Origin: Gaiella sp.
GTDB taxonomy: Bacteria; Actinomycetota; Thermoleophilia; Gaiellales; Gaiellaceae
Reading direction: 5' to 3'
Assembly: GCA_027493885.1 (NCBI GenBank)
Contig: JAOSJZ010000001.1
Coordinates: forward strand, 1,790,622 to 1,854,621
Length of the DNA stretch: 64,000 bases
In this document: positions 37,414-38,868 of the stretch, piece after piece
Numbering within the stretch: the stretch's first letter is position 1
How the letters are laid out: each line of letters starts with the position of its first letter
Notes under the pieces: model-generated
What the model was told of the DNA's origin: nothing
What the model saw: only the letters and a program-made list of their open reading frames with translations
The model's database searches: none
Position numbers and translations under genes: made by a program

Positions 37414-38868
37414 ATGAGGCGACCGTTGATCGGACTGCTGGTGGTGTTGGTCGCAGTGCTCGTGGGAGCAGTCGCCCAGACCGCGACGGGCTCCTCCGGA
37501 GCGGCATCCGCCACCACCGCCGGGACGCTGACCGGGCCGCCGCCCGCGCAGCCGCTCAAGATCCGCATGGGGTGGGGCATCCCGGCGGAGGAGATCAAGT
37601 ACGCCATGCAGCGCTACGGCAGCGAGATCGCGCCGAACATGGGCAAGTGGTACTCGATCGAATGGTTCCAGTTCGCCGGGACGGCACTCGGCGTGCAGGG
37701 CCTCGCGGCAGGGACGCTCGACTGCGCCACGGTCGGGTCGCTGTCCGCGCCGAACGGCATCGAGCAGGGAGCGCCGATCGTCCTCACGGGCGAGTTCATC
37801 GAGGAGCGGACGCCGTTCTTCTCGACCGCCTGGATGGTGAAGAACGGCTCCGGGATCAACACCCTGAACGACCTCAAGGGCAAGACGGTCGCGACGTCGG
37901 CGATCGGTGGCTCGACCGACTACCTCCAGGACTTCTACATCCAGCAGAAGACCGGGATGAAGCCGGGGAGCGACTACAAGAAGGTCGAGCTTCCGTTCTC
38001 GCAGCAGCAGGAGGCGTTGCTCGCCGGACGGATCGACATGGGGCTCTACCCGCAGCCGTTCTACGGCCGGATCATCGCGACCGGCCAGGTGAAGTCGATG
38101 TTCCGGGTCGTCGACGTGCAGAACCCGTTCGTGCAGCTCCTGAACGGCTGCCGCCGGAGCTTCCTCCAGGATCATCCGCGCGAGATGCAGGCGTTCGTGC
38201 TCGACTGGGTCAGGGTCGCGAACTGGATCCGCAACCCGGCGAACCGCGAGAAGGTGATCGACGCGAGCGTGGCGGCGACGAAGCTCCCGCGCGCCGTCCT
38301 CGAGACCTATCTGATCACCCAGCAAGACTTCTACCGGCCGCCGAACGGCGCGGTGAACGTCAAGGCCCTCCAGGCGAACTGGAACTTCTTCCAGCGCATG
38401 GGCGGGATCAAGAAGCAGCTCAAGGTCACCGACTACCTGATGCCGGGCTTCTACCCTTCGGCCGCGGTCGTCGCGGAAGCGCTCGGCAAGAAGTTCGTCG
38501 AGGGCGTCGAGAAGCTCGGCTCGGCGAGGTCGGAGACCCTGCGTGGCACGGACGGCGAGGACCGGCTGTACGGCCTCGGCGGCAACGACCGGCTCCTCGG
38601 CTTCAAGGGCAACGACCTGCTCGACGGCGGCGCCGGCAACGACAACCTCGCCGGTGGCGCGGGCGACGACGCGCTGATCGGAGCGGCGGGGAACGACCGC
38701 CTCGACGGCGGCGCCGGCGACGACTCGCTCGTCGCGGGGCCCGGAAACGACAGCATCCGAGGTGGCCCGGGCCTCGACGACTTCAACTGCGGCGCCGGGC
38801 GCGACACCGCGCTCGACGTGCAGGCCGGTGAGCGCACAGAGGGCTGCGAGGTCGTGCGGCGACGCTGA
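37414..38868 (+). CDS. SsuA/TauA/NMT1-like ABC substrate-binding protein with C-terminal RTX repeats
   Basis: Signal peptide without lipobox Cys; LAAGTLD, DLKGKTVA, ALLAGRID; about ten GGxGxD-type nonapeptides; GGGAG RBS. Confidence 0.85.
   Translation: MRRPLIGLLVVLVAVLVGAVAQTATGSSGAASATTAGTLTGPPPAQPLKIRMGWGIPAEEIKYAMQRYGSEIAPNMGKWYSIEWFQFAGTALGVQGLAAGTLDCATVGSLSAPNGIEQGAPIVLTGEFIEERTPFFSTAWMVKNGSGINTLNDLKGKTVATSAIGGSTDYLQDFYIQQKTGMKPGSDYKKVELPFSQQQEALLAGRIDMGLYPQPFYGRIIATGQVKSMFRVVDVQNPFVQLLNGCRRSFLQDHPREMQAFVLDWVRVANWIRNPANREKVIDASVAATKLPRAVLETYLITQQDFYRPPNGAVNVKALQANWNFFQRMGGIKKQLKVTDYLMPGFYPSAAVVAEALGKKFVEGVEKLGSARSETLRGTDGEDRLYGLGGNDRLLGFKGNDLLDGGAGNDNLAGGAGDDALIGAAGNDRLDGGAGDDSLVAGPGNDSIRGGPGLDDFNCGAGRDTALDVQAGERTEGCEVVRRR
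38545..38810 (+). repeat. RTX Ca2+-binding nonapeptide repeat block (coding)
   Basis: GTDGEDRLY GLGGNDRLL GFKGNDLLD GGAGNDNLA GGAGDDALI GAAGNDRLD GGAGDDSLV AGPGNDSIR GGPGLDDFN CGAGRDTA. Confidence 0.9.

Follow-up and report, generated by a model that had tools for sequence, protein, structure and literature searches.

An ABC importer substrate-binding protein with a conserved C-terminal RTX module in a small sub-lineage of Gaiellaceae

Within a 64,000-nucleotide stretch of contig JAOSJZ010000001.1 of the soil actinobacterium Gaiella sp., the whole of which is referred to here as the window, we identified a gene for the substrate-binding subunit of a NitT/TauT-type ABC importer, which bears a C-terminal RTX tail. 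The fusion of the two parts is a conserved and narrowly distributed architecture of single origin. The tail is probably a calcium-folded module for surface association or stability, whilst a role as a substitute for a lipid anchor is weakly suggested.

Results

The RTX-tailed binding protein is encoded by an open reading frame of 484 amino acids located exactly at 37414-38868 (+), and the chosen start agrees with the N-terminus MRRPLIG that is common to the orthologs P0002-P0006. The protein consists of five parts, i.e. a Sec-type signal, a binding domain, a linker, ten RTX nonapeptides and a two-cysteine cap, which are listed below together with the ribosome-binding site and the N-terminal linker.

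37402..37410 (+), GAGAGGGAG, the ribosome-binding site preceding the ATG at 37414, read off the sequence
37414..37476 (+), Sec-type signal peptide without lipobox Cys, residues 1-21 (MRRP, LIGLLVVLVAVLVGAVA, then Q), by inspection
37477..37554 (+), N-terminal linker rich in Ser, Thr, Gly, Ala and Pro, residues 22-47 (pLDDT, dN/dS)
37555..38448 (+), substrate-binding domain of class F (NMT1/SsuA/TauA/ThiY type), residues 48-345 (Pfam, AlphaFold2, Foldseek)
38449..38535 (+), linker between binding domain and repeats (residues 346-374), briefly helical at 350-357 and of low confidence at 360-364 (AlphaFold2)
38536..38805 (+), predicted beta-roll of ten RTX nonapeptides, all in perfect register (residues 375-464; Pfam, register, AlphaFold2)
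38806..38868 (+), cap at the C-terminus, containing Cys478 and basic at its end (residues 465-484, TALDVQAGERTEGCEVVRRR); the interval includes the stop codon (sequence)

The signal type and the cleavage site were assigned by eye. The n-region MRRP is followed by a hydrophobic core of 17 residues and then by AVA/Q (the slash marks the boundary) and, as the first-pass annotation had noted, this Sec-type signal contains no lipobox ([LVI][ASTVI][GAS]C), the earliest cysteine of the protein being Cys104. The A/Q boundary is kept in all seven tailed orthologs, none of which has a cysteine there, and in six of the seven it takes a small-x-small/Q form (AVA/Q, TAA/Q, TVA/Q) resembling a signal peptidase I site. 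The AlphaFold2 pLDDT is below 50 across most of residues 1-36, and the N-terminal linker, 26 residues long, matches in place and length the stretch that tethers lipid to domain in the lipoprotein orthologs. Export via Tat was considered and rejected, as RRP makes a poor motif, the core is strongly hydrophobic and RR is absent from P0007; furthermore, cytoplasmic folding would be unsuited to a Ca2+- and disulfide-dependent tail. By inspection, the C-terminus has neither the LPXTG motif nor the hydrophobic segment of a sortase-type anchor; sortases are encoded in the genome.

The protein scores above the Pfam cut-offs for NMT1 (PF09084, 48.2 bits against 20.5), NMT1_2 (PF13379, 45.4 bits against 24.7) and Phosphonate-bd (45 bits), and AlphaFold2 confidently predicts a two-lobe class-F binding-protein fold (pLDDT of the domain mostly above 90), in which Cys104 and Cys246 are conserved. 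In Foldseek, the best matches of the domain were SsuA (2x26 and 3ksx) and TauA (6ssy), with ThiY also matched (E ~1e-15 and TM-scores of 0.72-0.80, normalised to the target, for SsuA, TauA and ThiY). The identity to solved structures is 12-20%, the best SsuA and TauA matches reaching 19-20%, and the scores stay below the equivalog thresholds of both SsuA (TIGR01728, 104.8 bits against 163.5) and TauA (TIGR01729, 37.2 against 304.25). The earlier description of a complete SsuA/TauA-like domain is therefore true for the fold class only, and the substrate is probably not a sulfonate.

Downstream of the binding domain, the pLDDT of the linker drops to 52-67, and the pTM of the whole model is 0.71, which suggests that the binding domain and the predicted beta-roll may be flexibly joined. 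Untailed orthologs stop near this linker. The tail itself matches Pfam HemolysinCabind (PF00353, 69 bits against a cut-off of 23); where about ten repeats had been counted at first, we find ten in register, with the pattern GGxGxDxUx and a predicted short strand every nine residues (pLDDT ~80-92). Sequence matches of the tail include CyaA RTX blocks, a family I.3 lipase, serralysins and the R-modules of AlgE epimerases. The cap adds two strands after the repeats, and the C..RD..C motif reported previously takes the form CGAGRD-x13-C, with Cys459 in the tenth nonapeptide and Cys478 in the cap, before the chain ends in RRR. Both cysteines are invariant in all seven tailed orthologs, and Gly and Asp positions are conserved too. 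Linker and RTX module together make up 139 C-terminal residues that are absent from every other family member examined.

The position of the gene at the head of an ABC operon was likewise recognised correctly; an ATPase, two permeases and an amidohydrolase come next, and further genes follow in the same order as in relatives.

38871..39713 (+), ABC ATPase of the NitT/TauT type (Pfam ABC_tran, 105 bits)
39700..40524 (+), ABC permease 1 (Pfam BPD_transp_1), approximate start taken from a 274-amino-acid gene in L011
40521..41381 (+), ABC permease 2 (Pfam BPD_transp_1), approximate start, collinear with L011
41378..42742 (+), TRZ/ATZ-type amidohydrolase or deaminase (Pfam Amidohydro_1, 143.6 bits), approximate start
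42727..43509 (+), short-chain dehydrogenase (SDR), co-operonic in relatives (Pfam adh_short_C2, 197.6 bits)
43509..44483 (+), open reading frame of 324 amino acids, in the collinear place that a NicX-like (PF26233) gene takes in relatives

In NCBIfam, the ATPase comes closest to SaoA, ntrCD and TauB-like but reaches none of these equivalog cut-offs, and the scores of the amidohydrolase against the TRZ/ATZ and deaminase families of NCBIfam are below cut-off as well. The order of the SDR gene is identical in L011 and L012. The 324-amino-acid frame (43509..44483) had no match in the Pfam library used, and its collinear gene is annotated as PF26233 NicX in both L011 and L012. A molybdenum hydroxylase is encoded upstream of the operon in one relative. 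An Rfam scan of the window returned no riboswitch that would name the substrate. Because of the amidohydrolase, the SDR and the NicX-like gene downstream, and the molybdenum hydroxylase upstream in one relative, the importer operon is probably linked to the catabolism of N-heterocycles, with a purine- or pyridine-type N-heterocycle as the substrate.

The in-frame fusion occurs in seven protein clusters of 77-100% identity from independent assemblies (ENA, Logan, JGI and NCBI), which form one clade in the ortholog tree (SH-aLRT 100); between the tailed contigs and this genome, nucleotide identity is 81-88% with the flanks counted in. The dN/dS ratio is 0.19-0.35 for the tail (residues 366-484), 0.14-0.28 for the binding domain and 0.27-0.66 for the N-terminal linker, the most relaxed region. 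The tail is thus maintained by purifying selection, and its addition arose once, in one small sub-lineage of the Gaiellaceae. The untailed orthologs are 57-69% identical and of ordinary build, with 330-360 amino acids, and 97 of the 113 carry a lipobox, against none of the seven tailed ones. The ancestral protein of the ortholog family was apparently a lipoprotein, and most orthologs have a lipoprotein signal. Loss of the lipobox and gain of the tail fall on the same branch; since the tailed clade is a single evolutionary event, this link rests on n = 1. Within the family there were at least four independent losses of the lipobox, of which one only was accompanied by a tail. Orthologs were not found in 80 related genomes. 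A homology search with the tail was dominated by generic multi-repeat RTX proteins, with no independent binding-protein fusion among the matches, and the best 150 matches of the whole protein in a representative search, where the tailed clade is reduced to one representative, consisted almost wholly of giant RTX proteins with 2,000-7,500 amino acids. Literature searches turned up nothing specific on binding-protein/RTX fusions or the Gaiellales envelope.

Inspection of ~10 kb around the gene revealed no component of a type I secretion system, in keeping with the first reading, and neither a TolC-type OEP nor Omp85 was found genome-wide, whereas the positive controls were. The host is a monoderm, without outer-membrane markers or a TolC-type secretion factor. 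Of the 26 binding-protein loci, 17, the tailed one included, have plain Sec-type signals and no lipobox in this genome; thus, the premise that binding proteins of monoderms are normally lipoproteins fails here. The gene lgt is present; a one-base frameshift divides it in this assembly, and in 13 of 13 relatives of good quality it is intact. An RTX tail occurs on one binding protein of the 26, and about 16 of the other 25 loci have neither lipobox nor tail. Retention therefore cannot generally depend on an RTX tail and, as anchorless binding proteins are the norm here, a missing lipid anchor by itself demands no compensating tether.

PF00353 is present in 73 of 81 related genomes, where a module of RTX repeats plus cap ends many large, Sec-exported proteins of surface type. 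This C-terminal module, an informal group set up in this analysis, is defined by an extreme C-terminal position, the pattern D.[VLF].CG.G.D-x(9-22)-CE.V and a basic end, all of which the tailed protein has. The cap pattern D.V.CG.G.D...CE.V.RR ends many RTX proteins of Gaiellales, and near-identical caps close proteins of relatives with DUF11, BNR/sortilin, LTD+TSP3 and fn3 domains (target, DDFNCGAGRDTALDVQAGERTEGCEVVRRR; L075, ...LRCGAGRDTAYVNRGDKVARDCEVVRRS; L076, ...VDCGTGRDTVRIDRGDRVTGCEVVRFR). The cap cysteines are paired: after manual correction, both are present in 22 cases, neither in eight and a single one in none. A binding-protein domain was seen in none of the 67 RTX open reading frames sampled from relatives, 30 of which were judged by eye and 37, of middle size, with crude profiles built from this genome for four binding-protein families. 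In the rest of this 3.29-Mb genome there is no second RTX-tailed binding protein and one other open reading frame with RTX repeats, at C1:1028979-1029869, which encodes a small, all-RTX protein with a Sec signal.

Discussion

We propose the following sequence of events for the RTX tail. In the calcium-poor cytoplasm the tail would remain unfolded and, for that reason, would be able to pass SecYEG. Once exported, it would be folded by extracellular Ca2+, and a putative disulfide between Cys459 and Cys478 would lock the fold. The folded beta-roll, on its flexible leash, could then attach to the surface non-covalently and in a Ca2+-dependent manner, keeping the binding protein near its permease, for instance via an anionic wall polymer. 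We regard such Ca2+-dependent association beside the permease as the best explanation of the tail, and hold it tentatively. A tether of this kind, which the first-pass annotation had put forward as an unusual means of retaining the binding protein, fits with several observations: the nearest untailed orthologs are mostly lipoproteins, anchor and tail were exchanged on the same branch, the tail is selectively maintained and the RTX-plus-cap module ends surface-type proteins in related genomes. Against it stand the three other lipobox losses in the ortholog family that brought no tail, the lack of any binding-protein domain in the 67 RTX frames sampled from relatives and the roughly 16 anchorless, untailed binding proteins of this genome; because most binding proteins here do without both anchor and tail, the tail is not simply compensation for a lost lipid anchor. 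An RTX or beta-roll anchor is also absent from a review of monoderm surface display. The folding switch suggested at the same time is plausible from general RTX chemistry; a folding ratchet in the style of type I secretion is a mismatch with Sec export, as a C-terminal tail leaves the Sec channel last and so cannot pull its cargo.

In serralysins and family I.3 lipases, the beta-roll is there mainly for folding and stability rather than for attachment. As both are among the sequence matches of the tail, it may solely be a stability, solubility or folding module that protects against unfolding or proteolysis in soil and has no role in retention, the protein being held at the cell by the same means, whatever they are, as the 16 other binding proteins without a lipid anchor. 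We consider this somewhat unlikely. It agrees with non-lipidated, untailed binding proteins being the norm in the genome, with the very diverse cargo of the module in relatives, as would be expected for a generic stabiliser, and with purifying selection on the tail; it leaves unexplained, however, why one of 26 binding proteins has a tail and why its gain coincides with the loss of the lipobox. Moreover, the long, low-confidence linker of the model suggests an independent module on a leash, whereas a buttress would be expected to pack on the binding domain.

A more far-reaching version of surface association, which we think unlikely, is that RTX repeats, two-cysteine cap and basic end together form an undescribed Ca2+-dependent surface-retention domain of Gaiellales and related monoderm Actinomycetota, non-covalent and equal in function to SLH, LysM or GW modules, which was recruited here in place of the ancestral lipid anchor.

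Alternatively, the signal might stay uncleaved as a membrane anchor, with the N-terminal linker as the tether and the tail in some other role, for example docking to a further envelope protein such as the one other RTX protein of the genome. The length of that linker, shared with the lipoprotein orthologs, the long core of 17 residues and the existence of the second, all-RTX protein with a Sec signal would fit; yet the signal peptidase I-like site is conserved in six of the seven tailed orthologs, the linker is the least constrained region and a docking partner gains no support from co-occurrence or adjacency, so that we judge this arrangement improbable. It is very improbable that the protein is a released, diffusible scavenger, similar to a hemophore, which would pick up substrate at a distance from the cell and come back, with a hypothetical re-docking through the beta-roll. 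The signal looks cleavable, an anchor of the lipid, transmembrane or LPXTG kind is absent and the monoderm host has no Omp85 or OEP; the gene, however, shows translational coupling with the operon of its permeases, like those of ordinary binding proteins, and we are aware of no ABC binding protein that works as a diffusible scavenger in a monoderm. Finally, an assembly or frameshift artefact, the possibility of which had been raised at the outset and which apparent single-base frameshifts in lgt, one SBP_bac_5 and one Peripla_BP_6 gene of this assembly might invite, or a neutral, functionless accretion, is effectively refuted by the recurrence of this in-frame fusion across seven clusters (ENA, Logan, JGI and NCBI assemblies), the low dN/dS of the tail and the conserved cap cysteines and Gly/Asp positions.

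If the tail is indeed a retention device, as in the Ca2+-dependent surface association that we favour, a calcium-dependent beta-roll would join the short list of surface-display modes of monoderms, and a transporter binding protein could swap its lipid anchor for a beta-roll module; if it is only a stabiliser, the fusion is a minor architectural curiosity. The wider context may outweigh the gene itself in two respects. Most ABC binding proteins of this monoderm combine Sec signals that look cleavable with the lack of an anchor, and one may ask how Gaiellales hold them at the cell. Moreover, RTX-plus-cap modules end many exported proteins of the order, and the present genome is without type I secretion markers.

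Compared with E. coli SsuA (PDB 2X26) and TauA (PDB 6SSY), the protein has the same two-lobe fold, Pfam families and NitT/TauT-type gene context, but falls below the thresholds of both families, at 12-20% identity to solved structures. With the classical RTX exoproteins (serralysin/AprA, family I.3 lipases, CyaA) it shares the GGxGxDxUx repeats, the beta-roll and a C-terminal cap; in contrast to them, it has an N-terminal Sec signal, its two-cysteine cap ends in RRR and is unlike an uncleaved type I secretion signal, and its host genome lacks a TolC-type factor and outer-membrane markers. The R-modules of AlgE epimerases are beta-rolls that bind anionic polysaccharide. In the AlgE mannuronan C5-epimerases (PDB 2ML1-3, 2AGM) they are stand-alone beta-rolls joined to a functional domain, as in the tail described here, and by analogy they offer a working model for a putative binding of the tail to wall polymers, although they differ in their diderm origin, their export route and the lack of a cysteine cap. 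RTX repeats occur in Gram-positive genomes without type I secretion components, and Sec-signal RTX proteins of Actinobacteria were recorded, without a function, by Linhartova et al. 2010 (PMC3034196). It is to these that the tailed protein comes close, with the difference that the cargo in relatives consists of large surface-type proteins, whereas here it is the binding protein of a transporter.

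The fusion and its reality

The binding protein is encoded by an open reading frame that is exact at the positions below, lies behind a good ribosome-binding site read from the sequence, and begins with MRRPLIG, a start common to its orthologs.

Features of the target gene
37402-37410, + strand: ribosome-binding site GAGAGGGAG
37414-38868, + strand: ABC binding protein with RTX tail, 484 aa

The first-pass annotation described a Sec-type signal without a lipobox cysteine, and this holds, as the first cysteine is residue 104; with cysteines only at 104, 246, 459 and 478 (four, an even number, in the mature protein), the protein has no lipobox-like element. 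Pfam NMT1, NMT1_2 and Phosphonate-bd cover approximately residues 82-282, and HemolysinCabind scores 69 bits against a cut-off of 23. The annotated series of about ten RTX nonapeptides with a closing cysteine motif was likewise borne out: ten nonapeptides in perfect register occupy residues 375-464 (TLRGTDGED, RLYGLGGND ... DFNCGAGRD), followed by the strands TALDVQAGE and RTEGCEVVR and then RR, with Cys459 and Cys478 forming the closing pair. The AlphaFold2 model (60-sequence alignment; mean pLDDT 84.6, pTM 0.71) has a confident binding domain, a weak linker (pLDDT ~52-67 around residues 345-365) and, at residues 366-484, short strands confidently predicted in an array, with one strand for each nonapeptide.

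The same in-frame architecture occurs in seven protein clusters of 77-100% identity from ENA, Logan, JGI and NCBI assemblies, which rules out an assembly artefact. Four tailed contigs were read directly, and tailed contigs are 81-88% identical to this genome at the DNA level, flanks included. One of them, the 3.8-kb L001 (DASSBK010000176.1), sits in a Gemmatimonadota bin; it matches this Gaiella-like genome along its full length at 85% identity and is probably mis-binned. Pairwise dN/dS was 0.14-0.28 for the binding domain, 0.19-0.35 for the tail and 0.27-0.66 for the signal plus N-linker. The value for the tail indicates that it is a maintained part of the protein, and both artefact and neutral accretion can effectively be dismissed as explanations of the fusion. 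The protein belongs to a known kind, of which it is a genuine variant that arose once and is maintained by selection.

Evolution of the tail and loss of the lipobox

Untailed orthologs number in the thousands (57-69% identity, 330-360 aa) and end where the linker of the tailed protein starts. Among the best 120 ortholog matches (P0041 corrected by eye), a lipobox is present in none of the seven tailed and in 97 of the 113 untailed proteins. In a maximum-likelihood tree of the binding domain the seven tailed proteins form one clade (SH-aLRT 100), sister to two lipoproteins and eight Tat-signal proteins, and therefore the tail was gained once, on the branch that also lost the ancestral lipobox. 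On this tree the lipobox must have been lost at least four times: in the tailed clade, in a Tat-signal clade and in each of two Sec-signal clades. A tail accompanied just one of these losses. A second clade of metagenome orthologs (P0058, P0095, P0114) has also lost the lipobox; instead of an RTX tail it has a short C-terminal stretch of 15-30 extra residues rich in Ser, Pro and Ala.

No ortholog was found in 80 related genomes, which include 48 species representatives from the same genus. Within a small sub-lineage the operon is an accessory trait with patchy occurrence, and the tailed form has so far been found only in one small sub-lineage of the Gaiellaceae.

Envelope, secretion and anchoring of other binding proteins

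The first-pass annotation noticed no type I secretion genes in the window. Across the whole genome, neither Omp85/BamA nor TolC-type OEP was detected; control genomes scored as expected. The organism is a monoderm without a route for type I secretion. Two sortases are encoded. The gene for lipoprotein diacylglyceryl transferase (lgt; G000:C1:1082274-1082995, - strand, outside the window) is intact in all 13 good-quality relatives and is here broken across two reading frames by a single-base frameshift adjoining a G-run (...CAGGGGGGCTCGG...); this is a sequencing error or else a pseudogene specific to the strain. An SBP_bac_5 gene (G000:C1:2230023-2230917, -) and a Peripla_BP_6 gene (G000:C1:602874-603900, -), both outside the window, are each split into two neighbouring ORFs, apparently further frameshifts or pseudogenes of this assembly.

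N-termini were read at 26 binding-protein loci of this genome, located from four families (NMT1_2, SBP_bac_8, SBP_bac_5, Peripla_BP_6).

N-termini of the 26 binding-protein loci
Lipobox clearly present: 7
Ambiguous: 2
Plain Sec-type signal with AxA-like end and no Cys: 17, target included

These ~17 signals look cleavable, and the proteins have no transmembrane segment or other obvious anchor; an example within the window lies at 60167-61219 (-). None of the 16 lipobox-free loci other than the target carries an RTX tail or a C-terminal hydrophobic segment. Binding proteins without a lipid anchor are the majority case in this genome, contrary, for this organism, to the premises that monoderm binding proteins are normally lipoproteins and that a missing anchor must be specially replaced.

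The RTX-plus-cap module across the order

PF00353 is present in 73 of 81 related genomes, and many of the ORFs finish with a short RTX block and a cap near-identical to that of the target.

C-terminal cap sequences
Target: ...FNCGAGRDTALDVQAGERTEGCEVVRRR
L075, RTX ORF of a relative: ...LRCGAGRDTAYVNRGDKVARDCEVVRRS
L076, RTX ORF of a relative: ...VDCGTGRDTVRIDRGDRVTGCEVVRFR
L054, RTX ORF of a relative: ...VRCGAGSDVVVADRFDTVSRDCETVARR

The usual pattern (loci L016-L085) is D.V.CG.G.D...CE.V.RR; other ORFs show a cysteine-free variant, ...RDVV.GG.G.D...[VI]E[RK], and the same cap occurs in P0169 of the Solirubrobacteraceae. Both cap cysteines are present in 22 sequences, neither in 8 and a single one in 0 (regex matches, mis-registrations corrected by eye; kin sequences, no formal test), a both-or-neither pattern that would fit a disulfide. 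The module's cargo in relatives comprises large surface-type proteins that bear DUF11, BNR/sortilin propellers, fn3 arrays and a lamin-tail domain (LTD) with thrombospondin-3 repeats (TSP3). A binding-protein domain was found in none of 37 mid-sized RTX ORFs by profile screen (positive control 4e-78), nor by eye in 30 further RTX loci. The only other RTX-repeat ORF of this genome (L087, G000:C1:1028979-1029869, -, outside the window) encodes ~215 aa with a Sec signal, almost wholly RTX repeats, and has a two-cysteine ending (...GGPGVDLCVGGESLARCP) unlike the target's cap; relatives also encode small RTX proteins of this sort with a Sec signal (L017, L035).

Operon and substrate

As first annotated, the gene heads a full ABC operon. 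Genes for the ATPase, both permeases and an amidohydrolase of TRZ/ATZ type come next, with 2-nt gaps or overlaps between them; further along are an SDR gene and an ORF that is collinear with a NicX-like gene. Every relative read continues the operon with the amidohydrolase, SDR and NicX-like genes. Just upstream in the window are a carbamoyltransferase, a carbamate kinase and an LLM oxidoreductase. In one relative (L014), the tailed operon lies directly downstream of a cluster of ETF, Fe-S, molybdenum hydroxylase and LLM oxidoreductase genes; the corresponding cluster in this genome (G000:C1:1872527-1882141; 88% nucleotide identity) is ~43 kb away. This rearrangement ties the tailed transporter to heterocycle oxidation genes. 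No riboswitch was found by an Rfam scan of the window. Our best guess for the substrate is an N-heterocycle of the purine or pyridine type.

Possible role of the tail

The protein combines a Sec-type signal, a flexible linker and a capped beta-roll, of one origin and under purifying selection, in a genome where type I secretion markers are absent. RTX repeats in general are disordered at cytoplasmic Ca2+ levels and fold on Ca2+. By analogy, those of the target would be unfolded in the cytoplasm, and for that reason compatible with Sec export; they would fold on Ca2+ outside the cell, where the two cap cysteines may staple the folded tail. We tentatively propose, as the most likely reading, that the folded tail serves for surface association, as a leashed module that acts non-covalently and depends on Ca2+, because it was gained where the lipid anchor was lost, the module occupies the wall-anchor position on surface proteins of the lineage, and the linker resembles a tether. 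The tail was earlier suggested to be a Ca-dependent envelope tether or folding switch, an unusual means of retaining a binding protein; tail gain and lipobox loss on the same branch speak for this, and the prevalence of untailed lipobox-free proteins speaks against it. The same prevalence, together with the fact that many beta-rolls are merely scaffolds, makes a pure stability module possible and nearly as likely. That an uncleaved signal retains the protein while the tail has another role seems improbable, and a diffusible scavenger even more so. A folding ratchet like that of type I secretion is unlikely, since the tail emerges last in Sec export. The first observation is confirmed, and the interpretation of the tail is partly supported.

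Comparison with known systems

Linhartova et al. 2010 (PMC3034196) reported that six Actinobacteria genomes without type I secretion components encode RTX proteins. No mention of an RTX or beta-roll anchor is made in a review of surface display in monoderms (PMC5817068), no binding-protein/RTX fusion of this kind was described in the literature searched, and the RTX-plus-cap module of this order appears to be undescribed as such. The finding would gain significance should the module turn out to serve these monoderms generally as a surface-retention domain. The binding domain itself shares its fold class with its nearest structures, SsuA, TauA, ThiY, Thi5 and PqqT, but only 12-20% identity, and scores under the NCBIfam cut-offs for SsuA and TauA; the annotation 'SsuA/TauA-like' therefore stands for the fold class and not for family or substrate.
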